A stretch of DNA of 52,632 nucleotides from a virus (lineage: Duplodnaviria > Caudoviricetes), in IMG/VR virus record IMGVR_UViG_3300006162_000018, positions 1 to 52,632 of that record; one strand, 5' to 3'. The translations under genes were made by a program, and so were the position numbers. Positions 2,428-46,165 of this stretch are shown one piece after another (positions within the stretch are counted from its first letter, which is position 1; every line of letters begins with the position of its first letter). Under the pieces are notes generated by a model. It did not search any database. It saw nothing but the letters and a program-made list of their open reading frames with translations, and was not told where the DNA came from.

Positions 2428-4113
2428 GGGATTTATATACTTGACTCCCCTCGACAAGATCGTTGATACGGTTCTCGCGTACCGACCCAAGCCGAAGAGT
2501 AAACCGGCAAAGGCTCGCAAGCGGCGCGCGGCGAAAGCCGCAAAGGCGACGTGATCCGGATCGAGCACGGAGACATGCTAGACATTCTTCCTCGCCTTGC
2601 GGCTGAGGGGATTGTCGCCGACGCGATCGTTACCGATCCTCCTTACGGCCTTGAATTTATGGGCAAGAAGTGGGATGCCCCGCTGAAACTGTGGGAGACG
2701 GGCGCGGGCTTTGGTAAGCCGGGAATTGGTGATCGCAATACGCCCTGGCCGGCCTTTGGCGCTTTCGGCGCAGCTAATCCGACATGCGCAAATTGCGGCG
2801 GACGAGCGCGCGGCGCAAAGAGATGCGGGTGTGCCGAACCTAAATGGAAATCCATCGGCAAGCGTCGCGGCGGCGCTCCGATCCCCGCTGGCGATGCGCC
2901 ATCGCCGATGCAGGCTTATCAGCAATTTTCCGAGAATTGGGCGCGACAAGCGTTCGCCGTGTTGCGACCGGGTGGGTTCATGCTTGTGTTTGGTGGCACG
3001 CGCACCTATCACCGCATGGCCTGCGCGATCGAGGATGCTGGCTTTGAAATCCGCGACGCAATCATGTGGCACTACGGCACGGGATTCCCGAAATCGCTCA
3101 ACGTGTCGAAGGCGATCGACAAGGCGGCCGGAGCCGAGCGCAAAGTCGTGGCGACGGTGCGCTACAAGGGCGGCGGCACCGAGCATATCAACCGCTCGAA
3201 TGCGGCGGTTCACGATTACCGGCCTGACGGCTATCAGAAGGGCGAGAACATCCTGGACGTGACGACTGCCGCAACCCCAGAGGCTGCGGCATGGGAAGGC
3301 TGGGGCACCGCTCTAAAGCCAGCAACCGAGATCATCTGCGTGGCACGCAAGCCGCTCTCCGAGCGCACCGTGGCGGCGAACGTGCTCAAGCACGGCACCG
3401 GGGCGCTCAACATCGACGAGTGCCGGATAGGATACGAAGACGACAAGCCCGACCCGGCTACTAATCCGCTCTATAGGGCGCAGAACGGCTACGCGAACAC
3501 TAGCGCACCCGATACAAACTCGTCGTCCTATACCTTCCGAGCCGACGGTGGCCCCGACCGAAAACCTCAACCTGCAGGCCGATGGCCCGCCAATCTTGCG
3601 CACGACGGCTCGCCCGAGGTCATGGCTTTGTTCCCGGATAGCGCGGGTCAACAAGCCGCCGTCCGCCCCGATAGCGGGACCGGACAGAAAACCAATGGCA
3701 TCTTGGGAAAGTTTGCAACCAACAGCGACCACGAACCGCGTGGCGACACCGGCTCTGCGGCCCGGTTCTTCTATTCGACGAAGGCTGGTGCGGAAGATCG
3801 CTGGGGGTCGAAGCATCCGACCGTCAAGCCGGTCAAGCTGATCGAATGGCTGATTACGCTGGTCACGCGGAAGGGCGGACTGGTGCTCGATTGCTTCGCC
3901 GGCTCGGGTACTGCAGGCGTGGCAGCACTCGCGACCGGGCGAAATGCCATTTTGGTTGAGCAGGACGAAAGCTACGTCGCCGACATCCGCGAGCGCATGG
4001 CGTTTTATCAAGGCGACGGTCGTCACTCACTGGCCTCGAAAAACCGGAACGTCGGGGCGCGCGACAAACCTGGACCGCTCTTGTGATCCGAGGGACTCAT
4101 GTATATAAATCCG
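2428..4113. mobile_element. Non-autonomous IS1595-like element (mobile insertion cassette) carrying a DNA methyltransferase
   Basis: TIRs GGGATTTATATACTTGACTCCC (2428-2449) and GGGACTCATGTATATAAATCCG (4092-4113), 19/22 complementary; identical 8-bp flanks AAAGGGAA at 2420-2427 and 4114-4121; no transposase inside. Confidence 0.85.
2551..4086 (+). CDS. Beta-class N6-adenine/N4-cytosine DNA methyltransferase
   Basis: N-terminal IVTDPPY (motif IV), HPTVKP, C-terminal VLDCFAGSGT (motif I). Confidence 0.93.
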   Translation: MIRIEHGDMLDILPRLAAEGIVADAIVTDPPYGLEFMGKKWDAPLKLWETGAGFGKPGIGDRNTPWPAFGAFGAANPTCANCGGRARGAKRCGCAEPKWKSIGKRRGGAPIPAGDAPSPMQAYQQFSENWARQAFAVLRPGGFMLVFGGTRTYHRMACAIEDAGFEIRDAIMWHYGTGFPKSLNVSKAIDKAAGAERKVVATVRYKGGGTEHINRSNAAVHDYRPDGYQKGENILDVTTAATPEAAAWEGWGTALKPATEIICVARKPLSERTVAANVLKHGTGALNIDECRIGYEDDKPDPATNPLYRAQNGYANTSAPDTNSSSYTFRADGGPDRKPQPAGRWPANLAHDGSPEVMALFPDSAGQQAAVRPDSGTGQKTNGILGKFATNSDHEPRGDTGSAARFFYSTKAGAEDRWGSKHPTVKPVKLIEWLITLVTRKGGLVLDCFAGSGTAGVAALATGRNAILVEQDESYVADIRERMAFYQGDGRHSLASKNRNVGARDKPGPLL

Positions 4114-4434: not shown

Positions 4435-4911
4435 TTAGCTAATTATCATCGCGCCACCCGTCGAGCGGCGGCCGTCTGTCGCTTTCCAGCCTGATTTCGA
4501 TTTGAAGCCACGACACCAGTCAGCGACCCTCTGCCGCGAGGTTCTGCGCTTGCCCGCGCAGGAATAGGCGAGGAGCGCCGAACCGAACGGCGTCGTCATG
4601 TCTTTCCATACGCCAGCGACGTAACCGGGCGGGTGTAGCGGTCGCGCGACTTCGGTATGCGATTCGCGGTCGGCTTGCGTCCACCCCATGCGCCAGGCTG
4701 CATAGCGCTTCGCCGCAATCGCCATGTAGGGGCATTGCGATTGCGGCTTGCCGGCGAGCCGAGCGGCATAACCGCGATCGTAGGCCGTCTTTGTCGCATT
4801 CCGTTTCGGCTTGGGTGTTTCGATCGGCGACGCCGGCCCGGCGAGATAGATAACCGACTCAGTGTTGCCGGCCCACTTGTCGCGAAGATCGCGCAAACGA
4901 TAATGTGTCAT
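4435..4911 (-). CDS. Ribosome modulation factor (Rmf/CrpP)-like domain protein
   Basis: AYDRGYAARLAGKPQSQCPY...AWRMGW matches the RMF pattern A.xRGYxAxxxGxxxxxCPY...WxxGW; AGGAGG RBS before ATG 4911. Confidence 0.7.
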   Translation of the reverse strand: MTHYRLRDLRDKWAGNTESVIYLAGPASPIETPKPKRNATKTAYDRGYAARLAGKPQSQCPYMAIAAKRYAAWRMGWTQADRESHTEVARPLHPPGYVAGVWKDMTTPFGSALLAYSCAGKRRTSRQRVADWCRGFKSKSGWKATDGRRSTGGAMIIS

Positions 4912-4936
4912 TTGGTTCCTCCTTGCTGACACCCAC

Positions 4937-4993
4937 AACCTAATCGCCGTTGGCAAATCTGTCAACAGATAAATCGACACCGTTGCCATTTTT
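4937..4993 (-). promoter_or_regulatory. Sigma70-type promoter with second copy of the 34-bp core
   Basis: Minus strand TTGACA(4965-4960)-17-TAGGTT(4942-4937); 4960-4993 is 33/34 identical to 1423-1456. Confidence 0.75.
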
Positions 4994-5001
4994 CGATCGA
5001 C

Positions 5002-5048
5002 ATTACAGGCGGTCATTTAGTCGGCTCAGGGCAATGACCCGCGGTCAT
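5002..5048. repeat. Pair of ATGACC-N3-GGTCAT palindromic boxes (copy A)
   Basis: ATTACAGGCGGTCAT (5002-5016) and ATGACCCGCGGTCAT (5034-5048). Confidence 0.6.
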
Positions 5049-5191
5049 AAACGGAAACCGGCCCGCGTGGGGGCGGGCCGGGAAATCCGAAGATTTTTTC
5101 GCTTGACCTGGGGAGGAACCCGGTTCAGCGTGCCGTTGGGTGACAGCGAGGGCAAATTGCCTAACGTTCCAAGCCAGAGTCAAGCGAAAAG

Positions 5192-5470
5192 ATGAGCGGC
5201 CAGGCTTGGCTGATGCTCGCCTTTCCCGGTGACGACGCCGGAAAACACGCGCTACAGGCATTCGTGCCGGCCAAATCGGGCAAATGCTGGTTCCGTACGC
5301 TGTTCACCCGCGAGCAAGCGATTGCCTGCAAGCGCGAGCTGATCGCGGCCGGCATCCGCTACACCTGCAGGAAAGTTGACCGCCCGCAACCCCGATTCGC
5401 GGCGCACCAGGCAAAAAGCCAAGGTGGTGTCGGCGGTCGGCTTAACACGACACCGATTGACTGGAGATGA
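5192..5470 (+). CDS. Hypothetical protein
   Basis: 92-aa ATG ORF coupled (ATGA) to the next ORF. Confidence 0.55.
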   Translation: MSGQAWLMLAFPGDDAGKHALQAFVPAKSGKCWFRTLFTREQAIACKRELIAAGIRYTCRKVDRPQPRFAAHQAKSQGGVGGRLNTTPIDWR

Positions 5471-5769
5471 AATCACGGCGCCCTTTCGGCTCGACCCCTT
5501 GGCTTGCCAAGAGAGCAACCGAACGCGCCACTAATCAGGCGGAGAGACAGCAACGCAACCGTTCGCGACGATTGGCGCGCGAGTTGGATGTTGCGGCTGT
5601 CCTCGCCAAAGCAACGACGCCGAGCCGTAGCGAATCGCGGCTGGTTAAAGCCCCCGAGGGATCGAATAGGCATACGCACACGGGTGATTCCGTAGGCTTA
5701 ATACGATTGCCCGATCCCGCCGTCATCCTTGTGACGGTTGGCAGAATTAAGGCCTACCGAACGGAATAG
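5467..5769 (+). CDS. Hypothetical protein (3' half overlaps the structured region; doubtful)
   Basis: GGAG RBS and ATGA coupling, but no recognisable domain. Confidence 0.35.
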   Translation: MKSRRPFGSTPWLAKRATERATNQAERQQRNRSRRLARELDVAAVLAKATTPSRSESRLVKAPEGSNRHTHTGDSVGLIRLPDPAVILVTVGRIKAYRTE

Positions 5770-6130
5770 CCCGTGAAACCAGGGCTACGTAACCACGCGT
5801 AGTCGCATCGCTGGGGATGGCGCCGTTTGCAGGGCAAGATTCATTGAGCGCTCGAATTGTGCCCGGAGATTAGTGCAGGGCACACCACAACCTATCAGAG
5901 AACCTTCAGCGATGCCGGCTACTCGGGCAGGCCCATAGGGGGGAGGGGCACTGTTACCCCTTGATACCCCAAAGCCAGCGCTTTCTCTGAGCCCGCAAGC
6001 ACAAACCCCGCACCCTCCCCTCAAAAAAAAGACCGCCGAAATGGTCTCGGCAGTGGGCCGGGATGCCTCCGGTGAGGCAGTATCGCCCGGCCCTGCTGCT
6101 GGAATGACTGAGCCTGCCCGTAGCTACGGC
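5624..6130 (+). ncRNA. Candidate large structured non-coding RNA (three nested multi-stem domains)
   Basis: More than ten nested helices found by eye, e.g. CACGGG/CCCGTG, ATTCCG/CGGAAT, GCATCGCTG/CAGCGATGC, CGGGCAGGC/GCCTGCCCG, GGGCCGGG/CCCGGCCC; G-U pairs favour the + strand. Confidence 0.6.
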
Positions 6131-6218
6131 GCGACAACCCGAGAGAACGCTTGACAAAATCAAGCGCATGTGAATTGGTGCGAGCCAGCAACCCGTTGAT
6201 GTAAAACGATACACCGCC

Positions 6219-6641
6219 ATGCCACAAGTCGGAAATCCCAAATGGGTCAAAGGCGTCTCCGGAAATCCCGAAGGGTTGACCAAGCGCATCGTTAACATCG
6301 AATCACTCTGCCGCTTCCAGGCACCCAATGCTGTCAAAGCCCTTACCCGGATAATGACATCAGCTAAGTCGCCGGCTTCCGCCGTCGTCTCTGCTGCGTG
6401 CGCGATCCTCGATCGCGGCTATGGCAAGCCTCGCCAAGATGTGCACCTCACCCAAGGTGACGAGTTCAGCGAACTGTCGGACGATGCACTGCGGGAGCGG
6501 GTGCTTGAGCTGGCGAGGGCGATGGCGGCACTCGACCGGCGCGGGGGGGAAGTAATCGACGGTGTGGCAGTTGAGCAACACCTACTAGATGTTGATGCAA
6601 CCACCAAAATCAGCGGTACAACCAATACCGACCAGAGCTAA
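6219..6641 (+). CDS. terS: Terminase small subunit-like protein
   Basis: KWVKGVSGNPEG and ILDRGYGKP motifs typical of DUF5681-type small terminases; upstream of terL. Confidence 0.7.
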   Translation: MPQVGNPKWVKGVSGNPEGLTKRIVNIESLCRFQAPNAVKALTRIMTSAKSPASAVVSAACAILDRGYGKPRQDVHLTQGDEFSELSDDALRERVLELARAMAALDRRGGEVIDGVAVEQHLLDVDATTKISGTTNTDQS

Positions 6642-6665
6642 GCCATTGATATCGGCTGATGCTGA

Positions 6666-6693
6666 ATGTCGCATATGTCCTATTATGGAAAGT
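6666..6693 (+). other. dif-like XerC/XerD recombination site
   Basis: ATGTCGCATAT-GTCCTA-TTATGGAAAGT has the 11-6-11 layout of dif (E. coli GGTGCGCATAA-TGTATA-TTATGTTAAAT), intergenic. Confidence 0.7.
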
Positions 6694-6749
6694 TGCACTG
6701 CACAACGAACATATAAGGAACGCACGCACAGGTAGTGCCGCGCCGCCCC

Positions 6750-6795
6750 ATTACCGGCGGTCATCTCCTCGTTGCGGGCAATGACCTAGGGCCAT
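6750..6795. repeat. Pair of ATGACC-N3-GGTCAT palindromic boxes (copy B)
   Basis: ATTACCGGCGGTCAT (6750-6764) and ATGACCTAGGGCCAT (6781-6795), same flanks as copy A. Confidence 0.6.
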
Positions 6796-6939
6796 AAACG
6801 GAACCGCTCCCATGTGAACGGTCGAAAGTACCCCTCCGACCCCCCGGCCATCCCTTTGACGTTGACCGTCCGGGGACGGGAGCCTCTCCCCGCTCTCGTG
6901 CGTTCTTTTTGCGGCCAAATTTTTTTGGGAAATCGGCGC

Positions 6940-6967
6940 TTGACACTGGCGGCATCTGCTATATCTT
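6940..6967 (+). promoter_or_regulatory. Sigma70-type promoter, leaderless transcript
   Basis: TTGACA(6940-6945)-16-TATCTT(6962-6967), ATG at 6974. Confidence 0.6.
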
Positions 6968-6973
6968 AGCGGC

Positions 6974-7280
6974 ATGAAGCGGCGCTTAGCGATTGACCTA
7001 TTCTGCGGGCTTGGCGGCTGGGCCGAGGGATTGCTGGCTGAGGGGTGGGACGTGGTTGGGTTCGACGTAGAGCGGCACGAGTACGGCGCGCATCGGTATC
7101 CGGGGCAGTTGGTGTTGCAGGCATCCCACCCGTCTCGGACGTGCAGACATTGCATGGGTCTCAGTTCCGGGATGTTGGGCTGATCGTGGCGAGCCCGCCG
7201 TGTCAGGCGTATTCGTGGATGGCAATGCCGTGGAAGCGGGCGAAGGCGAAGGCCGCTGCGATCCGGGCGGACGAAAGCCA
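6974..7280 (+). pseudogene. C5-cytosine DNA methyltransferase, frameshifted and truncated
   Basis: Motif I IDLFCGLGG in one frame and motif IV IVASPPCQ in another; deleting 7121-7137 rejoins them; later motifs missing. Confidence 0.8.
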
Positions 7281-7460
7281 TGCCCAATGTGCGGGGGTCG
7301 GCCCGTTTATCATCACGGCGGACGGTGGTTTGGGTGCGCTCAGTGTAAGCTTGGATACCAAGTGGCGGATTACGATGGCGATCTTGGTCTTGTAGAGGCG
7401 TGCTGGGATCGTCGTGTCGCACATTTGTCTATTGACAGCGCCCCGGAGGTTTCCCGGTGA
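7275..7460 (+). pseudogene. Lar-like (restriction alleviation) zinc-finger remnant
   Basis: KPCPMCGG...CAQC...WDRR pattern; no convincing start of its own. Confidence 0.55.
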
Positions 7461-8478: not shown

Positions 8479-8746
8479 GCCGACCGAGCGAGATCGCGAG
8501 ATAGCGTGGATCTGGTTGCGGAGTCAGCCTTATATCTTCGACTCGGCTGCGGGCCATGATCTTGCCAAATCTTTCGCAGCTTGGCGCATTACCGCCCGCG
8601 AGGAGGGCCGGCGCGAGGCGGTCGAGGAATGCGCGAAGATCGCCGACGAGGTAAGACGCGAGGGCGCCGATGATGGTGTCGGGGGGGTTTGGCGATTGGC
8701 TTGCTCAGAGATTTCCCAGCGTATCAGGCACGGAGAAGTTAAATGA
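8471..8746 (+). CDS. Hypothetical protein
   Basis: Coupled ORF with EAVEECAKIAD motif seen in small phage proteins. Confidence 0.6.
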   Translation: MAEPTERDREIAWIWLRSQPYIFDSAAGHDLAKSFAAWRITAREEGRREAVEECAKIADEVRREGADDGVGGVWRLACSEISQRIRHGEVK

Positions 8747-9405
8747 AAACCTTGCTCACCTCTACCGCGCTAGCACTGGCGCTCGCGTCCACTGCGGCGC
8801 ACGCAACCTGCGTCTCGACGACAGCGATCTCGGCGCCGGATTCGAGCGCCGGCACGACCTGCTCGATCACTGCGGCGGCATCGACGGTTGATATCGTCTT
8901 CGCCTACAAGGCGGCGTCGGACATTGACTTGCTGATCAACGGCACGACGACCTTGCTGAAGAACACCGATCCGCTGGGGACCGAGGCGGTTCTGACCGGG
9001 CTCACGCCGGGGCAGACGATCGGCTTCACCTGGAAGAACATGACCACCGGGGACAGCTTTCAGGCCGGGGTTCCGGCGAGCGACGGCAAGCAGCACATCG
9101 CGGTAGAGGCGGGATACGCCGACTTTCAGACCGACCCGCCGCGCCGCTATCTGACGGCGGCGGATCTTGGCGCTGCCTATGGGGTGATGACCGGGATTGC
9201 GCCGATCGCCGACTGGACCTTTGTCGGCATGGAGGATTTGCTGACGAACCAGGCGAGCGACTTCGACTACAACGATTTGGTTTTCGGGATGCGCGGCATC
9301 GACCCGCAGGTGGTTGAGCCGGCGATGGGGCTGACGGCGTTTGTGCTGTTCGGGCTGGCGGCGTGGTTTCGTCGCGGCCGGCGCGGCAGCTTCGTCGGCT
9401 TATGA
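8743..9405 (+). CDS. Secreted protein with DUF4114-like motif and PEP-CTERM-like C-terminus
   Basis: Signal peptide ending AAHA; GMEDL...DFDYNDLVF; C-terminal VVEP + hydrophobic helix + RRGRR. Confidence 0.75.
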   Translation: MKTLLTSTALALALASTAAHATCVSTTAISAPDSSAGTTCSITAAASTVDIVFAYKAASDIDLLINGTTTLLKNTDPLGTEAVLTGLTPGQTIGFTWKNMTTGDSFQAGVPASDGKQHIAVEAGYADFQTDPPRRYLTAADLGAAYGVMTGIAPIADWTFVGMEDLLTNQASDFDYNDLVFGMRGIDPQVVEPAMGLTAFVLFGLAAWFRRGRRGSFVGL

Positions 9406-9436
9406 GAGCTTCGGCCGCCCGCATTGAGCGGCCGGG

Positions 9437-9505
9437 GGACCGGCGTCCGACACGCCGGGGCGTTTCCTCCCAGACTTGGCCGGGGCGAGAGTCCCGGCCA
9501 TTTTT
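9437..9505 (+). ncRNA. alpha-r8 (suhB/MmgR/GsrN)-like small RNA ending in an intrinsic terminator
   Basis: Hairpin CCGGCGT/ACGCCGG, single-stranded TTTCCTCCC (9463-9471), then TGGCCGGG/CCCGGCCA hairpin + TTTTT. Confidence 0.65.
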
Positions 9506-9516
9506 AGGGTGAGGTG

Positions 9517-9624
9517 ATGATGACCTATGCTGGCTTGTTTCTGCTGGGCGTTGGGCTGGGCGTCTTGGCCCCCATAATCGGCCGTTGTGTGCGGCGTGTC
9601 CCGGACTTCTACGATGAGGAGTGA
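9517..9624 (+). CDS. Small membrane protein
   Basis: Hand-translated 35 aa MMTYAGLFLLGVGLGVLAPIIGR... with GAGG RBS. Confidence 0.45.
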   Translation: MMTYAGLFLLGVGLGVLAPIIGRCVRRVPDFYDEE

Positions 9625-9783
9625 GTGCCCGTGGCAGAACGGCAAGAAGGCGCGCGAACTGACGGCGGTAGCGAAGCTGTCGGCGTTCATGATAGGCAAG
9701 GAAGAGAGCCCGCATGACGGCTGGATCGCGGTGCTGGTCGGGTTTGTGGCTGGTTTTGTGATCGGCTATCTGGTGGGCTCGTT

Positions 9784-11418
9784 TTGATTTCGGCCGCTTC
9801 CGCCACACGCGAGGAGATGCTGGAGGTTCTGCGGGCTGCGCGGGCGGTTGAGGGGCGGCGTGAGAAGGAGGATGCAGAGCGATCGCTATTGTCCTTTGTG
9901 CGGCTGATGTGGCCCGCGGTCGAGCCTGAGACGCCGTTCGTCAGTGGTTGGGTGCTGGAAGCGATTTGCGAGCATTTGGAGGCGGTGACGGCGGGGGAGA
10001 TTACCCGGCTGCTGATAAATGTGCCTCCTGGCTCTACCAAGAGTATCGTTTCGGACGTAATGTGGCCGGCGTGGGAATGGGGGCCACAGAATAGACCGCA
10101 TCTTCGCTATCTATGCTGCGCCTACGCGGCGCATCTGACGGAACGTGACAATCGGCGGTTCAAGCGGGTCATTGAGTATCCGGTATTTGTCCGGCATTGG
10201 GGCGATCGGTTTGCGCCGCAGCCCGACATGTACTCGACGACTCAGGTAGGCAACGACAAGACCGGGTGGAAGCTGGCGTCATCTGTGGGCGGGGTCGGCA
10301 CGGGCGAGCGGGCGGATCGGGTGATCATCGACGATCCGAACAATCCGCAGCAGGCAGAGTCTGAGCTGGTGATGCGGGACACGACGACGTGGTTTCGTGA
10401 AGTCATGCCGGACCGGCTGAATTCGCTGGCGAAGTCAGTGATCGTGGTCATTCAGCAGCGGACGCATGATCTCGATGTGTCGGGCACGATCTTGGATCTT
10501 GGGTTGAATTATTGCCACCTGAGTGTGCCGATGCGTTTCGACGCCAAGCGTAGAATCATGCCGACCGACATCGGCTGGATCGACCCTCGCACGATGGATG
10601 AGGATGGGCTGATCCTTGATGGTTTGCTGCCTGACGGCTCGATCGAGGAGGGATCGGATCTGGCGGGGCAGGATGGCGTGCTGGCTTGGTCTGAGCGGTT
10701 TTCCTTCGCCGATTTATTGGAACTGGAGAAAGCGAAAGGGTCCTACGCTTTTTCCGCGCAATATCAGATGCTTCCCGTACCTCGGGGGGGTGGCATCATC
10801 AAGGATATCTGGTGGCAACTATGGTCTGATGAGATGTTTCCGGAATATGGGACCTGCGTCGCTAGTTTGGATACGGCGTTTAAGCTGGGCCAGCAAAATG
10901 ATTATTCGGCACTGACGGTATGGGCGGCATTTGCGCATCCTGATACCGGGAAACCCAAGTTGATGCTTCGCGATGCATGGCGCGGTCGCGTGAATTTGAT
11001 GGATCTTGTTCGGCAGCTAATCAAGACATGTCGCGCTCATAAGGTTGACGTGCTGCTGATTGAGGATGCCGGTCGCGGCGGTGACGTTCGTGATGAGATT
11101 TACCGGTTGCTAGGGCAGCGCGATATTCGTTGCCAACTGATTCCATCGACGCGAGACAAGGTGGCGCGGCTTAATGACTGCCAACCCATTTTTGAGAATG
11201 AGGTCGTATATGCGCCGGACAAGGATTGGGCCGAAGGAGTGATTCGCGAGGTTTCGGCATTTCCGTTCGGGCGGCACGATGATTGGGTGGACACCGTCAG
11301 TCTTGCGCTGTTATATCTGCGCAAAACGGGGGTAACATTGCGGCGCGAGGAGTTCGACGAGGCGGAGACAGCCAAGCTGATGTTCAAGAAGGTTCGGAGG
11401 CCGGTTTACGATGTCTGA
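9784..11418 (+). CDS. terL: Terminase large subunit
   Basis: Walker A NVPPGSTKS, Walker B VIIDDP, IQQR coupling motif, nuclease SLDTA and FPFGRHDDWVD. Confidence 0.95.
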   Translation: MISAASATREEMLEVLRAARAVEGRREKEDAERSLLSFVRLMWPAVEPETPFVSGWVLEAICEHLEAVTAGEITRLLINVPPGSTKSIVSDVMWPAWEWGPQNRPHLRYLCCAYAAHLTERDNRRFKRVIEYPVFVRHWGDRFAPQPDMYSTTQVGNDKTGWKLASSVGGVGTGERADRVIIDDPNNPQQAESELVMRDTTTWFREVMPDRLNSLAKSVIVVIQQRTHDLDVSGTILDLGLNYCHLSVPMRFDAKRRIMPTDIGWIDPRTMDEDGLILDGLLPDGSIEEGSDLAGQDGVLAWSERFSFADLLELEKAKGSYAFSAQYQMLPVPRGGGIIKDIWWQLWSDEMFPEYGTCVASLDTAFKLGQQNDYSALTVWAAFAHPDTGKPKLMLRDAWRGRVNLMDLVRQLIKTCRAHKVDVLLIEDAGRGGDVRDEIYRLLGQRDIRCQLIPSTRDKVARLNDCQPIFENEVVYAPDKDWAEGVIREVSAFPFGRHDDWVDTVSLALLYLRKTGVTLRREEFDEAETAKLMFKKVRRPVYDV

Positions 11419-40006: not shown

Positions 40007-42710
40007 ACGGACTCTCTATGGGGCGCTGGTTGCCCTGGTCTCGGCTGGTCCTGCCGCGGCTCAGACAACGACCCTTGTGGGGAATATTGCGACACCGACG
40101 ACGGTGCCGATGGTATCCTTCAACAATTGTTTTTATGTCGGGCAGGGAGTTAGCGGATCAACCGGAACCGATACCAAGCTTTGTGCGAGCACAGCGGCTG
40201 GCTGGGCGAACGCTTTCGGCTTGGCGCCGATTACGACGATCGGTTCGGGACTAACTCTCAGTTCCGGCGTCTTAGCGGCAACTGGCGGCGGCGGGACGCC
40301 CGGCGGATCAAATCAAGCTGCACAGATCAACAGCTCCGGCTCCTTTGGCGCGATCGGCCCCACAGCGAGCAACCTCTTTGGCTGGAACGCATCGGGGATC
40401 GCGACCCCAATCGTGCTGGGAACGAATCTATCGCTGTCAGGCTCGACGCTGAATGCCACTGGCGGCAGCGGAACGCCGGGCGGGTCGAACGGCCAGATTC
40501 AGTATAACAATTCCGGCGCGTTTGGCGGCTTTACCTTCAGCGGCGGCATGACGGTTACGCCATCAACCGGCGTTGTCGTGCTTGGCAATCCGGGGCCTTC
40601 CACCCTCGGCGGAATCGAGAGCATCGCGCAGGCTGCCGGCGAGTTCGTTCAGTACATCGACACATCCGGAGTCCCGCATCTGGCGACGCCATCCGGCGGC
40701 GGTAATTTCAGCGGCCCCGGAAGTGCTGTCTCCAATGACCTCGTCTCGTTCAATGGCACGTCCGGCACCGTAGGCCAGGATAGTGGCATTCTCTCGACCA
40801 ACGTCGTCACCGCGGCGGCCACGCTAACTTCAAATGCCCTGACCTTGGGCGGCGGCTCCAAGGCAGTTTCCGTGCTCGGGTCTCTCGGCACGACGACGAC
40901 CTTGCTGCATGGCAACGGCGCCGGCCCACCATCCTTCGGCGCGGTTGTCCTGACGACCGATGTGAGCGGCGTCCTGCCCCTGGCAAACGGCGGGAGCAAT
41001 GCGGCCCTGACGGCAGCCGCTGGGGCCGTCCCCTATTCCACAGGCAGCGCGTTGGCATTGCTGGCCGCCGGCACGTCGGGGCAATTCTTAGAGTCTCAGG
41101 GCGCGGCCCCGCCGATTTGGGGCTCGCCTTCCGGTTCAGGCACAGTCGGAAGCTGCTCGACGGCGGATGCGCTGGCCTACTACGCCGCGACAGGAACGAC
41201 GACTAGCTGCTTGGCTGGCGTCGGCACTTCGGGGCAGGTGTTGACCAGCAACGGCACGGGCGTTGCGCCGACATTCCAGGCCGCTGGCGGTTTCACGGCG
41301 CCCACGCTTTCCCCCGGCTTGGCTACGACGCCGGGAACCTACAATGCCGGCGCGCAAACTCTTACATCAGGCAGCACGCTGTCGCCGCAGATTTTCTACA
41401 AGGCGGAAACATCGAGCTGCACCCTCAACTCGACCTGCAATTCGCCATCGACAAACGACACGGCTCTGTTGCCGACATTCACCAATGCGAGCCTGACGGG
41501 GACTCTGCCAAATCCGAGTACGGTGGGTTCTGGCTCGTACCAGATCGGCTATGACGGCACTCACAGCTATTCGGTGACGACGGTCGGTGGCACCGCCAGC
41601 ATCTACGGTTGCGGCACGCCCGGAACGACGGTCTCGGGAATCGCCTACCAGACTCAGTTCGTTACCGACGGCACGAATTATCAGTGCATCCCGAGCGGCG
41701 CGAGCAGTGGTTCCGGCGTGACCAGCGTCGGGCTGACGGTCCCGGCCGCGTCGATCTTCGGTGTCACGGGATCGCCGGTTACGACGAGCGGCAATCTCGG
41801 GCTGACAACGACCGTGACCTCGGGCGGTGTACTCTATGGATCTTCTGGGACGCAGGTCGCGTCGAGCGGCGCACTGACGGTAAATGCCCTTGTCAAGGGC
41901 GGTGGGGCTGGGACGGCTCCAAGTCCCTCGTCCGTGACAGACAACGGCACGATCGTAAATGCGAGCGCCGAGCCTATCCAAGTCGCTCAGGCATATTCGA
42001 CTCCGGGCGCTCTGACCGATGCGTCAACGGTCGCGGTGAACGCCGCTCTCAGCAACAATTTCACCTTGCTGATGACTTCCGGGATCGGCGCGACCCGCGC
42101 GTTGGGCAATCCGTCGAATTTGGTTGCTGGGCAAGTTCTGAACTTCGTCGTCACTCAGGACCCTACAGGCGGCCGGTTGCTGACTTTCGGGTCGGATTAC
42201 ACGGGGACCATTGCCCTGAATGCCGGGGCAAACGCGGTAACGCCGTTCTCGTGCGTGGCAAACACCTCCTCGACCTTGCAGTGTGCGGGCGGGGCCTCGA
42301 TCACTCCGGCCATCGCGCAAAGCTCTCCGTCGAACCCGACCGGCACGACATCGACGACGCCGGTCATGATGGGGCTCGCCGGCACGCTGACCCCACTTTA
42401 TAAAACCCGCATGTTCGTCTCGATCCAAGGGACGATTGCCAATTCGACGATCTCCGATGGGGCGACGGTGCGCTGCTATTTCGGGACGAGCACGGCGCCG
42501 ACCAATGGTGCCGCCCTTACCGGGACCGCGATCGGCTCGGCCCGCACAAACTCGACGCTGATCGCCGGGGCCGGGGTGCCGTTCTCATGTGGGGGCTGGG
42601 TGACGGGCCTCACAGCCAACACGGCATACTGGATCGACGCGGCGGTTGCTGCGGTTACGGGCGGGACGGCCTCGATTACCGCCGTCGATATCTCCGCAAA
42701 TGAGTTCTAA
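39993..42710 (+). CDS. Tail-fibre-like protein with signal peptide
   Basis: TTG start after GGAGG: MAYIRRTLYGALVALVSAGPAAA|; fibre repeats GTPGGSNGQIQYNN, GTSGQVLTSNG, VLPLANGG. Confidence 0.8.
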   Translation: MAYIRRTLYGALVALVSAGPAAAQTTTLVGNIATPTTVPMVSFNNCFYVGQGVSGSTGTDTKLCASTAAGWANAFGLAPITTIGSGLTLSSGVLAATGGGGTPGGSNQAAQINSSGSFGAIGPTASNLFGWNASGIATPIVLGTNLSLSGSTLNATGGSGTPGGSNGQIQYNNSGAFGGFTFSGGMTVTPSTGVVVLGNPGPSTLGGIESIAQAAGEFVQYIDTSGVPHLATPSGGGNFSGPGSAVSNDLVSFNGTSGTVGQDSGILSTNVVTAAATLTSNALTLGGGSKAVSVLGSLGTTTTLLHGNGAGPPSFGAVVLTTDVSGVLPLANGGSNAALTAAAGAVPYSTGSALALLAAGTSGQFLESQGAAPPIWGSPSGSGTVGSCSTADALAYYAATGTTTSCLAGVGTSGQVLTSNGTGVAPTFQAAGGFTAPTLSPGLATTPGTYNAGAQTLTSGSTLSPQIFYKAETSSCTLNSTCNSPSTNDTALLPTFTNASLTGTLPNPSTVGSGSYQIGYDGTHSYSVTTVGGTASIYGCGTPGTTVSGIAYQTQFVTDGTNYQCIPSGASSGSGVTSVGLTVPAASIFGVTGSPVTTSGNLGLTTTVTSGGVLYGSSGTQVASSGALTVNALVKGGGAGTAPSPSSVTDNGTIVNASAEPIQVAQAYSTPGALTDASTVAVNAALSNNFTLLMTSGIGATRALGNPSNLVAGQVLNFVVTQDPTGGRLLTFGSDYTGTIALNAGANAVTPFSCVANTSSTLQCAGGASITPAIAQSSPSNPTGTTSTTPVMMGLAGTLTPLYKTRMFVSIQGTIANSTISDGATVRCYFGTSTAPTNGAALTGTAIGSARTNSTLIAGAGVPFSCGGWVTGLTANTAYWIDAAVAAVTGGTASITAVDISANEF

Positions 42711-42720
42711 GAGGATGACG

Positions 42721-43281
42721 ATGATGCTGAAAAGACTGTTCCTCGCATTTGCGTTGGTGCTCGCACTGGCGCAGGGCGCAAATGCTGCCAGCCGATCGGC
42801 ATGGACCGCAGGTAACGGGGTCGGTTATACATGGACCGCCGTAATGGCGTCCGGGGATATGACCTCGCTTGCCAACGGCAGTACAGTTCTATCGAGCGCC
42901 AGCTCGATCACAAACCAGACCGCTCAAGATCAGTTTATGGATCTTGGCGGGGTCTGGACTGTTGCCAGCGCAACGCCCCCGGCCGGCGCTTACATCGGCA
43001 TCTATCTAGTGCCTCTGAATAGTGATGGCGCGACGTTCGGAACGGGAGAAATGGCCTCCGGTTCGACCATCACTCGCGCCCCGGCTGCCGGTCTTGTTTG
43101 CAGCATGCCGCAAGAAACCGCCGCCGCCACAACGACACTCGCAGGAACTTGCACCGGGATCATCATCCCGCCCGGTAGCTTTAGGATCGCCGTATTCAAT
43201 GGCTCCGGTGCGGGGTTAAGTTCAACCGCGGGCAACAACACCCTGCTTTATCGTACCTACAATATCAACCTCAACAACTGA
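42721..43281 (+). CDS. Signal-peptide-bearing beta-sandwich protein
   Basis: MMLKRLFLAFALVLALAQGANA|ASRS. Confidence 0.75.
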   Translation: MMLKRLFLAFALVLALAQGANAASRSAWTAGNGVGYTWTAVMASGDMTSLANGSTVLSSASSITNQTAQDQFMDLGGVWTVASATPPAGAYIGIYLVPLNSDGATFGTGEMASGSTITRAPAAGLVCSMPQETAAATTTLAGTCTGIIIPPGSFRIAVFNGSGAGLSSTAGNNTLLYRTYNINLNN

Positions 43282-43285
43282 TCTT

Positions 43286-44221
43286 ATGGCATACCTTACA
43301 GGATATGCGTCGATCGCTCGACGCGCGGCATCTGGAGTAATCCCGAGCATTGCGACCAGTCATCCTTTAGCGCGGGGGCTGCTCGCCGCGTACTATCCGG
43401 CGACGGCTCCCAATGGTACATTGCAGAACCTCGTAGCAGGCGGCAACGGCAATCTGACGACGCGTGTTGGCGTTGCGGTTGGGCTTTCGCCAACTCCCGA
43501 GGGACCAGGTCTTCTTTATTCCGGCCAGGCGACAGCATCATTTGGCGGCGCATGCCCTTCGACATTTCAATTATCTTCCGGCCAATCTCTTTTTGTGAGA
43601 ATGAAACGAGGGCCAACCGTCTATCAAGGTGGGCATGTTGCTTATTTATTTGGGGTTGCGATTACTTCCAGTCCGTTCAATTGCTATATTATAGGGACGG
43701 GGCTGAACGGAAGCACGGGAAATGGGCAATTAGGACTATTGTACCAAACGACCGCTTCGTCTTACATCGGAACTGCCATACTGCCTCTAAACACGATGGC
43801 TTCTGCGGGAGCTACGTTTGGGTCCGGCGCTCCCGGCAAATTGTACGTGAATGGCGCACAAGATACGGTAACAGGTTCGCCACCAAATGTGAACATCACC
43901 ACTTACACTCCTAACCCGACTATATATCTAGGGCTACAGAATACGACCGACTCTGTCTATGCCACAATCACTGTGGCTTATATTTGGGGACGACCCCTGA
44001 ACGATGGAGAGCATCGTTATCTTGACGCCAATCCCTATTCGCTGCTGCGCTGGCCGGTTGATATCGTTTATGATACAATTGAAAATCAAACGACGGTGCT
44101 TCCATCAGGCGTGATCGTTAATAAACCCATGATTTTCTCCCCGTTGATGCTTGCGGGCGTCGGCGGTCTGGAGTGGCTACGAAAACGCAAGATCAAGATG
44201 CGGCAATTGCGGGGGCAATAA
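43286..44221 (+). CDS. LamG/concanavalin-A-like protein with hydrophobic + basic C-terminus
   Basis: HPLARGL, KLYVNG, AYIWGRPL; ends MLAGVGGLEWLRKRKIK. Confidence 0.7.
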   Translation: MAYLTGYASIARRAASGVIPSIATSHPLARGLLAAYYPATAPNGTLQNLVAGGNGNLTTRVGVAVGLSPTPEGPGLLYSGQATASFGGACPSTFQLSSGQSLFVRMKRGPTVYQGGHVAYLFGVAITSSPFNCYIIGTGLNGSTGNGQLGLLYQTTASSYIGTAILPLNTMASAGATFGSGAPGKLYVNGAQDTVTGSPPNVNITTYTPNPTIYLGLQNTTDSVYATITVAYIWGRPLNDGEHRYLDANPYSLLRWPVDIVYDTIENQTTVLPSGVIVNKPMIFSPLMLAGVGGLEWLRKRKIKMRQLRGQ

Positions 44222-46165
44222 GTGCGTCGATGGCTTCTTGCGGTTCTGCTGCTGCTGTTGTTCTGCGGGTCAGCCTCGGCGCGATTTCTACCCGGCGGCG
44301 GCAGCGCGCCGATTACGACCTACACGCCGCTGTGCGGCGGATCAAACCCGACGTGCATCTATACCTACTCGACCGAGCGCCAGATGGCCTCGACCGCGAC
44401 CACGGCGATCCAGGTATACCGCTCGGTCGATGGTACGATGCAGGATATCGGTTTCACCAGCGCCGGGCTGGTCAACACCGCAACCGTCGATGCATTTTGC
44501 AACGCCTCGGTCGGCGGGGTGATCTCGCGTAACTGCTTGCTCGCGCAGATATACGACCAGTCGGGCAACGCCTGCCCGATCTGGAACGCCAACGCTTCGA
44601 CTATGCCGGATTATTACGTCGATCCGGGGCATCAGGGGCTACCGCGGTTCCAGGCGGTGTATCAAGGCAGCGGCGCCGTATTCAGCTTCCTGCTCGACAG
44701 CGGCGGCACGACGCAGAACCCGCCCACCCATCATTGCGCCGCCTTGACCGGCCCGGCGCAATCCTTGTTCTTCGCCGGCAACAGCAGCTATGGGGCGTTC
44801 TCTTCAGGGCAGAACGGCCTCATGGAAGGTACGGTCGCGAGCGGGCCACAGGGCGCGATGTTCGCCGCCTTCACCGGACCTTCGGGATACGCCTACGATC
44901 ATTGTTTAACTTCGTCACCCTGCGGCGGCATGGATACAGAAGCGCAGGGGCCGCAGTACAATTATACTCGCACCAGCAACGATGATTTCATCGATATCGC
45001 TGCGGCTCCTACCAGCGGTAACAGCCCGTGGAACGTTTGGATCAACAACGTAAATGTCAGTGCGCCGTTCGCGCCCGATAGCGTGGTTGACGCGCTAGTG
45101 ACTGGGTTCCGCATGACGTGGGGCGCGTCCGGCGATCATTCTCAGCATGGGCCGAACATCGGGCGTTCTGAATCGTTCTACAACTCGGTTCTATCCTCGG
45201 GACAGGTAGCGGCGCTTTACAGCAACGAGACCAGCTTTGTTGCGGGACTGACGACCGGGTATGTCGGTCCCGGCGACAACGCGATCGCCGGCAATGAAAA
45301 CAGCTATTCGACCGGCCTCACCTCGCAAAAGGTGCTGCAATTGCAGTGGCTGTCGCAGTGCTTCTCTTTGCGCAAGTGCTATGCCGGATATGAGGGGCCG
45401 GCGCTGAACGCCTGCCAGGGCAGCGGGGCATGCGAGGATATCGGTTGGGTCAACAACATCATCGACACCGCGACCCTGAGCGCGTGGTGCGGGCCGGTGA
45501 GCGGGCTCAATAACTGCGCGGCGCAGATTTGGTACAACGAGGCGCTCAACCAAGCGAGCGACACCAACGGAGTCGGCACCGGGATCGACGCCACGGCGGT
45601 ATCATCGTCGAACCGGCCAGCGATCTTGTGGTCCGGCTGCGGTACTTCGGCGATCACGGTTTGCATCCAGACCAGCGCCACCAACTACTTCACCACAGCC
45701 GGAATCACCGTCACCGGCGGATACACGATGAGCGCGGTGGCGATGCGGACCGCGGGAACGAGCGCGAGTGCGATCCTTTCCTCGGTTTCGACCCCGGAGA
45801 CTTTCATCGGGTTTGGCGCGGCGAACACCTGCACCGGCAGCGCCACATCGGGCGGCGGCGCATCGACCGTGGCCTGCAACGACAATGTGGTTCACAGCAT
45901 TACCGTCGATGCCCACACGTCGCCCTCCGCATCGACGATCACCTATGCCGACGGTACGGCGGGAACGGCCAACATCTCGGCGATCGGCTACAGCGCCAGC
46001 GGGCTCGGCGTCGGCGCGACCGGCGCCGGACTCGACCCTTGCGCTTGCCAGTTGAGCGAAGTGCTGGTCTATACCGACGCGCACAACACCAGCTACAATA
46101 CGGCCCTTGGCTCATCGGGCGTCGCTCTCTTGCGTGCCAATCAGCGCGCAGTCTTCGGGTTCTAG
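44222..46165 (+). CDS. Secreted protein with two arabinofuranosidase-B (GH54)-like beta-sandwich modules
   Basis: MRRWLLAVLLLLLFCGSASA|RFLPGGGS; YSTERQM...QDIGF...AFC...CLLAQIYDQSGN; second copy FSLRK...EDIG...IWYN. Confidence 0.7.
   Translation: MRRWLLAVLLLLLFCGSASARFLPGGGSAPITTYTPLCGGSNPTCIYTYSTERQMASTATTAIQVYRSVDGTMQDIGFTSAGLVNTATVDAFCNASVGGVISRNCLLAQIYDQSGNACPIWNANASTMPDYYVDPGHQGLPRFQAVYQGSGAVFSFLLDSGGTTQNPPTHHCAALTGPAQSLFFAGNSSYGAFSSGQNGLMEGTVASGPQGAMFAAFTGPSGYAYDHCLTSSPCGGMDTEAQGPQYNYTRTSNDDFIDIAAAPTSGNSPWNVWINNVNVSAPFAPDSVVDALVTGFRMTWGASGDHSQHGPNIGRSESFYNSVLSSGQVAALYSNETSFVAGLTTGYVGPGDNAIAGNENSYSTGLTSQKVLQLQWLSQCFSLRKCYAGYEGPALNACQGSGACEDIGWVNNIIDTATLSAWCGPVSGLNNCAAQIWYNEALNQASDTNGVGTGIDATAVSSSNRPAILWSGCGTSAITVCIQTSATNYFTTAGITVTGGYTMSAVAMRTAGTSASAILSSVSTPETFIGFGAANTCTGSATSGGGASTVACNDNVVHSITVDAHTSPSASTITYADGTAGTANISAIGYSASGLGVGATGAGLDPCACQLSEVLVYTDAHNTSYNTALGSSGVALLRANQRAVFGF

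Follow-up and report, generated by a model that had tools for sequence, protein, structure and literature searches.

In phage lambda, cos is a packaging region located upstream of the small-terminase gene. Lambda OOP and P22 sar are phage antisense RNAs that end at a terminator. GOLLD, ROOL, OLE, and HEARO are large structured non-coding RNAs (ncRNAs) of bacteria and phages included in Rfam. In the ColE1 layout, an RNAI-like antisense RNA is located at the 5′ end of the primer RNA II. As for small terminases (TerS), two reports identify the structures 6w7t and 7joq as TerS of PaP3 and NV1 (PMC7672466), and describe specific binding of PaP3 TerS, the product of orf1, to a 239-bp cos fragment (PMC3488191).

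The locus compared with these systems here is the gap between a conserved small gene and the small-terminase gene (terS) in an uncultured phage. It is found in the left part of the window, which means the whole analysed stretch of 52,632 bp, a linear IMG/VR virus sequence with an estimated completeness of 71%. Metagenome runs of 11 studies, covering freshwater, lake, and soil, contain the same sequence as contigs (17 runs, all of them DNA). Four runs were compared over 4900–6800, and they contain only near-identical fragments. A low-depth soil run differs from the window by T5600C, C5604T, C5618T, C6015A, and one additional A in the A run. The dense structural module on the + strand extends rightward from 9.8 kb, with TerL as its first gene; the left part of the window, which holds the gap, shows a looser gene organization (Table 1).

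The best explanation of the gap is a cis-acting junction that heads the packaging module. It would carry transcription signals and probably a pac or cos site, and would not encode one large RNA. We estimate the probability of this reading at roughly 0.4.

Table 1. Predicted features of the gap and its surroundings; positions are those of the window, and paired arms are separated by a slash.
Feature	Position	Strand	Description
Pentapeptide-repeat protein	922–1479	−	
N6/N4 DNA methyltransferase	2551–4086		
RMF-domain protein	4435–5016	−	
Conserved small gene	5192–5470	+	92 aa, no named family; ends where the gap starts
Non-coding gap	5471–6218	none	748 nt; based on stop codons, GC by codon position, ORF tiling, six-frame searches
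Domain 1	5624–5795		imperfect long hairpin 5679–5775 within helices 5642–5653/5782–5795; z −2.00 alone, 7/200 shuffles as good
Domain 1, arms			CGTAGC 5626/GCTACG 5784; CTGGTT 5641/AACCAG 5777; CACGGG 5679/CCCGTG 5770
Domain 1, inner arms			ATTCCG 5687/CGGAAT 5762; TAGGC 5693/GCCTA 5752; TTAAT 5698/ATTAA 5746; CCGTCA 5720/TGACGG 5732
Domain 2	5797–5923		127-nt hairpin, 18-bp basal stem 5799–5816/5904–5922; z −2.25 alone, 5/200 shuffles as good
Domain 2, arms			GTAGTCGCATCGCTG 5799/CAGCGATGCCGGCTAC 5907
Domain 3	5922–6122		multi-branch, closed by 5924–5932/6112–6120; z −3.61 alone, 1/200 shuffles as good
Domain 3, closing arms			CGGGCAGGC 5924/GCCTGCCCG 6112
Domain 3, inner arms			GGGGAGGG 5940/CCCTCCCC 6013; GGGCCGGG 6055/CCCGGCCC 6086
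G6AG4 tract	5938–5948		
C-rich, G-poor tract	5949–6026	+	35 C and 10 G in 78 nt
Candidate small RNA	6022–6135	−	~110 nt (114-nt fold); three hairpins, the last being the terminator
Intrinsic terminator of leftward transcription	6023–6054	−	10-bp stem 6054→6032, loop of 3, U8 6030→6023 (terminator scans)
Weak promoter candidate	6131–6160	+	extended −10-like, GCGACA-18-CAAAAT with TG upstream; ~60 nt before terS
Palindrome CGCTTGA-CAAAA-TCAAGCG	6148–6166		overlaps the promoter candidate
terS	6219–6641	+	probable small terminase (140 aa), DUF5681-related, PaP3/NV1 type; profile match to PDB
C5 methyltransferase	6974–7395		split across two frames
TerL	9784–11418	+	phrog_38, E 2.9e-77

In a greedy ORF tiling, no other ORF-poor stretch of the window is as long as the gap, whose non-coding nature is supported by several observations. 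Stop codons are present in all three + strand frames of 5770–6218. GC content is flat across codon positions in 5490–5830, whereas GC3 is raised, as expected, in the flanking genes. The small gene upstream has a GC3 of 0.72–0.82, and its seven homologues (46–65% identity) share 23 invariant columns. The 100-aa ORF at 5467–5769, which overlaps domain 1, was rejected as a gene on account of its flat codon-position GC and the lack of a real homologue: phmmer against 1.84 billion representatives returned only the protein itself and two long tandem-repeat proteins, whose matches (12 and 8 stretches) are taken to be artefactual sums of weak repeats. Two homologues of the small gene end with ...GSWRVKKRR, and the copy in the window ends with ...WR and a stop codon, and the next frame reads MKSRR, so ORF 5467 may begin with the tail of the small gene, displaced by a frameshift. 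A −1 frameshift reading (A AAA AAG plus a hairpin) was rejected because both frames stop within ~50 codons. None of nine six-frame pieces of the gap shows a credible match in Pfam or PHROGs (best E 0.0048; 17 bits, cut-off 30).

The product of the gene downstream of the gap can credibly be regarded as a small terminase, because the profile of its relatives matches the TerS structures of PaP3 and NV1. The profile built from eight relatives matches 6w7t_I (E 5.7e-7) and 7joq_I (E 9.2e-5), both described as "small terminase subunit". PF18932 is found on five of the seven terS homologues; the window's own protein is below the Pfam cut-off (E 0.041), and its AlphaFold model is poor (pLDDT 62). No other TerS candidate was found between 6641 and TerL. 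The placement of the region before the small terminase in the initial annotation is thereby borne out, with the region ending at the start codon at 6219. A packaging site is expected in or next to the small-terminase gene, and the region directly abuts this start codon.

As in cos and pac regions, a non-coding stretch of several hundred base pairs with inverted and repeated short motifs is located directly upstream of terS. The resemblance to the PaP3 cos is that TerS of the window belongs to the PaP3/NV1 structural type, and PaP3 TerS binds cos DNA specifically (PMC3488191). However, the gap does not resemble any known cos or pac site in sequence. Besides, the setting differs from PaP3-type cos in that terS is 3.1 kb from terL, and TerL is distantly T1-like: its closest named relatives are T1-like at just 24–25% identity, and TerL does not decide between pac and cos.

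Comparison with related phages shows what is shared at this position. The two closest phages, L002 and L003 (TerL 67–68% and a structural protein 84% identical), have structural genes in common with the window, but nothing upstream of terL and no DUF5681 gene. In L003, the closest (67% identity for TerL and 84% for the structural protein, which PHROG names "virion structural protein"), terS at 7137–7619 matches phrog_11494 and phrog_51 (E ~1e-11) and is not homologous to terS of the window. It is preceded by ~700 nt with only short doubtful ORFs; this stretch is unrelated in sequence to the gap and folds at z −2.48. In L248, an unrelated phage, a homologue of the small gene is followed by a gap and then by a third type of terS (phrog_1482, E 2.5e-37). 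The position of the gap before terS is common to these phages, but the sequence is not. Among 76 distinct loci with DUF5681-type terS, a contig end lies within 4 kb only upstream of the gene in 16 loci and only downstream in three (two-sided binomial p ~0.004, hand calculation). This bias fits genome ends often located just upstream of DUF5681-type terS. On the other hand, only 8 of 53 other DUF5681 terS genes have at least 440 nt upstream free of + strand ORFs, which counts against a general rule.

Several putative signals are found inside the region. The minus-strand element within domain 3 is a strong predicted intrinsic (Rho-independent) terminator, as it consists of a GC-containing hairpin directly followed by a U tract. 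Besides its A8 at 6023–6030, the 52.6 kb contain no A run of 7 or longer, and T8 at 1452–1459 is the one further 8-mer homopolymer of the window. The flanking genes are all on the + strand, so this terminator could act only on a transcript from the − strand. The C-rich tract ranks first among all 78-nt stretches, with (C−G)/78 of 0.32 against a mean of −0.016 (sd 0.088). Its composition is rut-like on the + strand, taking a rut site as ~80 nt of C-rich, G-poor sequence in untranslated RNA; the rut reading comes from composition alone. The promoter candidate before terS scores 8/12, which is weak, and is the sole candidate on either strand of 5400–6400 in a relaxed scan; the − strand of this interval has no promoter-like site even with relaxed criteria. 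On the + strand, a sigma-70-like promoter was not found ahead of 5624, nor was an intrinsic terminator found beyond 6130. The 3749 nt surrounding the region contain ten copies of CGTAG/CTACG, where 4.76 are expected (a count of 10 is reached in 4 of 200 shuffles), and six of the ten fall within 5626–6128, mostly at the bases of domains; this excess was spotted post hoc and is not independent of the helices. CCGTAGC is present in six copies in the window, three of which are in this region. Neither iterons nor multi-copy direct repeats were found, and an iteron-type origin was rejected for the lack of iterons.

These features can be combined as follows. The upstream transcription unit would end in the gap, where the C-rich tract, judging from its composition, might act as a Rho loading site. 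The minus-strand terminator would block or end leftward transcription, and expression of terS would start from the promoter candidate of the gap. The gap would most likely carry the DNA site, pac or cos, recognized by the adjoining TerS. The inverted repeats bearing CGTAG could be protein-binding sites for TerS or a regulator, and a genome end or the packaging start would map to the gap. The apparent three-domain fold would then be the sum of several independent inverted repeats.

The IMG/VR record and, in contig tallies, a 67-kb contig are continuous through the gap. In weighing the cis-acting junction, the position beside terS, the bias of contig ends, the shared architecture, the signals, and the strand symmetry described below were counted for it. 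Counted against it were the continuity of the record and the 67-kb contig, the T1-like TerL that leaves pac or cos undecided, the weak promoter, the rut reading from composition only, the post hoc CGTAG excess, the proportion of 8/53, and the folding z of −4.86.

The last value comes from the fold of the 507 nt that the initial annotation described as a three-domain structure. All of the helix arms listed there are present in the sequence at their positions in Table 1, and RNAfold recovers the three domains together with a closing helix, 5624–5631/6123–6130. The boundaries of the 507 nt were picked by eye, with the ends set to close a helix. The expectation that the fold would beat dinucleotide shuffles also held: the + strand has an MFE of −219.9 kcal/mol (z −4.86, not equalled by any of 100 shuffles), and its centroid retains the main helices. 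The − strand of the same 507 nt reaches −232.5 (z −4.23, 0 of 100 dinucleotide shuffles as good). Such similar folding on both strands is the expected result of inverted repeats at the DNA level. The MFE structures stay stable when mirrored onto the opposite strand (−204.3 vs. −219.9 for the + structure and −212.0 vs. −232.5 for the − structure), and G-U pairs and A-C mismatches are balanced between the strands without asymmetry. Domain 3 is more stable on the − strand (−104.6) than on the + strand (−94.4).

When MFE is regressed on GC, three of 69 other 507-nt segments of the genome fold as well as or better than the region, whose residual z is −2.1. The shuffle z of these three segments is −3.55, −3.79, and −4.14; those of eight arbitrary segments range from +0.98 to −1.78. 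Because three segments match the region after regression and reach a shuffle z of −4.14, the region tops the folding distribution of the genome only modestly and without a wide margin. Still, its z of −4.86 is the strongest among the 12 segments with a computed shuffle z, which leaves room for selection for RNA structure.

Searches for homologues of the region returned matches at chance level. Blastn in its "distant" setting with 5400–6300 found no match in 50,697 phage records. Against 240 loci around relatives of TerL, terS, and the small gene, the best blastn match of 5100–6300 covers 21 nt (E 0.13), and nhmmer with the same query and loci gives nothing at E ≤10. Five whole related virus records yielded only a 28-nt match, and terS is present in none of the five. 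A covariance model of domain 3 was searched against 191 loci (~1.04 Mb), with a best non-self E of 0.52. Exact 20-mer and 19-mer scans of IMG/VR gave zero hits each. Three samples of 401 prokaryote genomes each, drawn around a Betaproteobacteria MAG at the level of order, class, and phylum, contain ~30-nt matches in 4/401, 0/401, and 0/401 genomes, respectively. The matches of 20–30 nt are chance-level. Single-protein locus searches of IMG/VR with terS and the small gene found none, and the small gene was not found in genome contigs. Relatives of terS are present in at least 184 loci of metagenome, viral, and genome contigs; among the matches listed, all are at most 59% identical, and none has a similar upstream region. 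Nearer relatives of the flanking genes exist in the protein collection, namely P0002 (terS, 76% identical), P0010, P0011 (on a 57.7-kb contig), and P0012–P0016.

Family searches agree with the earlier view that the region is not a tRNA, tmRNA, or intron. No tRNA or tmRNA was found in the window, no Rfam intron matches 5300–6400 at E ≤10, and comparison with homologues shows the flanking genes to be complete. With 4227 models (Rfam 15), the whole window has no match at the gathering score, and neither RNAI nor any other plasmid RNA family of Rfam is matched. For 5300–6400, the only similarity at E ≤10 is suhB/mmgR at 6018–6085 (E 2.1; 16.1 bits, gathering score 41), which is chance-level.

The first alternative to the cis-acting junction is that the gap is a functionless spacer between mobile gene modules, composed of either decayed gene remnants or stacked palindromic (MITE-like) insertions. 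This is possible but unlikely. Stacked inverted-repeat insertions would fold well by construction. Domain 2, a 127-nt sequence with 18-bp terminal inverted repeats, is consistent with such an insertion, and an inverted repeat, 5621–5631/6123–6133, matching at 10 of 11 positions, brackets the whole element. However, no part of the region turned up again elsewhere in the window (15-mers with ≤1 mismatch gave 8 hits against ~3.4 expected by hand calculation) or in ~1,200 sampled genomes, and no target-site duplication is visible in the sequence. The same 15-mer scan rejected a motif common to other intergenic regions. Gene remnants would suit a decaying neighbourhood, in which the small gene is apparently frameshifted at its 3′ end and the C5 methyltransferase is split, but six-frame searches with Pfam and PHROG detect no protein remnant. 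The region belongs to the variable accessory part and is absent from the closest relatives, as might be expected for a spacer; the terminator and the extreme C-rich tract rather resemble functional signals.

A second alternative, which is rather unlikely, is a minus-strand small RNA of ~110 nt running from ~6135 to 6022, antisense to sequence lying directly ahead of the terS promoter or leader, with the rest of the gap being spacer. It would account for the high-quality terminator, with its 10-bp stem, U8, and the only A8 run of the window, at a place where all flanking genes are on the + strand. The predicted ensemble is well defined: the MFE of −49.7 is reached by the structure that is also the centroid, the MFE frequency is 0.15, and z is −3.30 (2 of 200 shuffles as good). 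The combination of a GC-containing hairpin and U8 opposite to flanking genes with a short, well-defined multi-hairpin fold is similar to lambda OOP and P22 sar. Unlike these RNAs, the candidate is predicted only and has no identified promoter, the − strand of 5400–6400 being devoid of promoter-like sites, and it does not overlap a coding start unless the RNA begins beyond 6219. It also has no homologues, and the similarity to suhB/mmgR is its sole resemblance to Rfam. The minus-strand small RNA is compatible with the cis-acting junction.

A stand-alone structured + strand ncRNA of ~500 nt, transcribed from its own promoter or processed from a longer transcript, was the reading of the initial annotation. 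The parts of it that stand are that the fold beats shuffles, in 0/100 of which it is equalled, with main helices kept in the centroid, and that no Rfam model matches, so that such an RNA would be new. It also lies in a non-coding region within a densely coding phage. In size (several hundred nt), multi-domain predicted fold, and phage setting, it is similar to GOLLD, ROOL, OLE, and HEARO, but these families are defined by covariation, whereas the region matches no Rfam model and has no homologues in the searches of loci, the phage collection, the covariance model, and the genome samples. Its identity as a discrete RNA is the part that the evidence tends to disfavour. The fold is symmetric between strands, with no G-U/A-C asymmetry; 3/69 genome segments fold as well after GC regression; no sigma-70-like promoter or intrinsic terminator was found to delimit it on the + strand; and a minus-strand terminator is located inside domain 3. 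The two closest phages lack the region, and in L003 a non-homologous terS follows an ORF-poor gap that is just as long but unrelated in sequence. Predicted thermodynamics is the sole positive support of the ncRNA, which is improbable, although not refuted.

Quite improbable is the combined version, in which an orphan + strand multi-domain RNA of ~500 nt and a terminator-ended antisense RNA of ~110 nt would constitute a module at the entrance of the packaging genes, controlling terS or priming replication via a G-rich/C-rich R-loop. The likeness to ColE1 RNA II noticed at first persists in the G6AG4 tract followed by C-rich partner tracts, and it extends to RNA I in the pairing of a ~500-nt sense structure with a ~110-nt three-hairpin antisense candidate, but an origin primed by an R-loop transcript, with the minus-strand RNA as the RNA I-like antisense, is highly improbable because no replication gene lies within ~5 kb (this neighbourhood encodes methyltransferases, an RMF-like protein, and TerS), iterons and an RNAI match in Rfam are missing, and the antisense candidate lies opposite the 3′ portion of the sense structure, the wrong end, and not opposite its 5′ end.

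If the region were a true discrete large RNA, it would be an orphan joining the very few large structured ncRNAs known from phages. If it is a packaging and transcription control region, as the cis-acting junction would be, it is an ordinary feature. In that case, it marks where to seek the genome ends of this uncultured freshwater phage group, whose TerS appears to be of the little-studied PaP3/DUF5681 type.

The features recognised around the structured non-coding region are listed below.

Features of the window beyond the structured non-coding region, in order of position
Feature	Position	Strand	Details
~46-nt motif, candidate regulatory	1411–1459 and 4948–4993		two copies
Ribosome modulation factor domain protein	4435–5016	−	PF04957, E 2.6e-9
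Terminator-like hairpin, 3' of terS	6876–6899	+	
Promoter-like site TTGACA-16-TATCTT	6940–6967		
C5 DNA methyltransferase in two frames	6974–7395	+	DLFCGLGG in one ORF, PPCQ in the next
Secreted-looking protein	8743–9405	+	weak DUF4114 match, E 9.8e-5, below cut-off
Terminator-like hairpin, directly ahead of terL	9477–9500	+	10-bp stem followed by T5

The genes lying between the small terminase gene (terS) and the large terminase gene (terL) could have been inserted as transcription units of their own. The two ORFs of the split C5 methyltransferase both show weak PHROG methyltransferase matches; the split reflects a frameshift in the gene or, alternatively, a mistake in the assembly. In the secreted-looking protein, the C-terminus consists of VEP, a hydrophobic stretch and RRGRR, in that order, a possible PEP-CTERM-like sorting signal. 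The gap ahead of terL is covered by 9121–9627, one of three other 507-nt windows (with 42561–43067 and 44081–44587) that fold as stably as the structured region after GC correction. Their shuffle z-scores are −3.55 to −4.14.

Among 76 distinct loci with a DUF5681-type terS, contigs end far more often just upstream of the gene than just downstream, in 16 versus 3 cases.

The two copies of the ~46-nt motif share a 24-nt core, GATATGTCAACAGATAAATCGACA, which is matched in the window with 0 and 2 mismatches. Two matches to this core were reached in none of 100 shuffles. Both copies contain a minus-strand TTGACA promoter-like site and are located upstream of a minus-strand gene. The repeat is also present as loose ends in one contig of the sequencing run X5. 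A small plus-strand ORF (1482–1692) faces the first copy. Judged by eye, it looks like an HTH regulator; a PHROG search with this ORF returned no match.

The promoter-like site of the second copy (~4970–4940) falls inside the listed ORF of the ribosome modulation factor domain protein, and GGAGG is followed by ATG at 4911. These positions suggest that the true start of this gene is 35 codons inside the listed ORF.

At the 3' end of the conserved small gene (5455–5490), the encoded protein terminates with WR and a stop, whereas two of its homologues, P0010 and P0011, run on as WRVKKRR or WRRKKRRS. The next frame encodes MKSRR. Compared with the longer tails of the homologues, this suggests a one-base frameshift.

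In phmmer, the 100-aa ORF 5467–5769, a rejected coding reading, matches the database proteins P0018 and P0019 at E-values of 5e-20 and 1e-4. Both are long tandem-repeat proteins, and the E-values arise from the summing of 12 and 8 weak matches, respectively. Repeat proteins inflate whole-sequence E-values.
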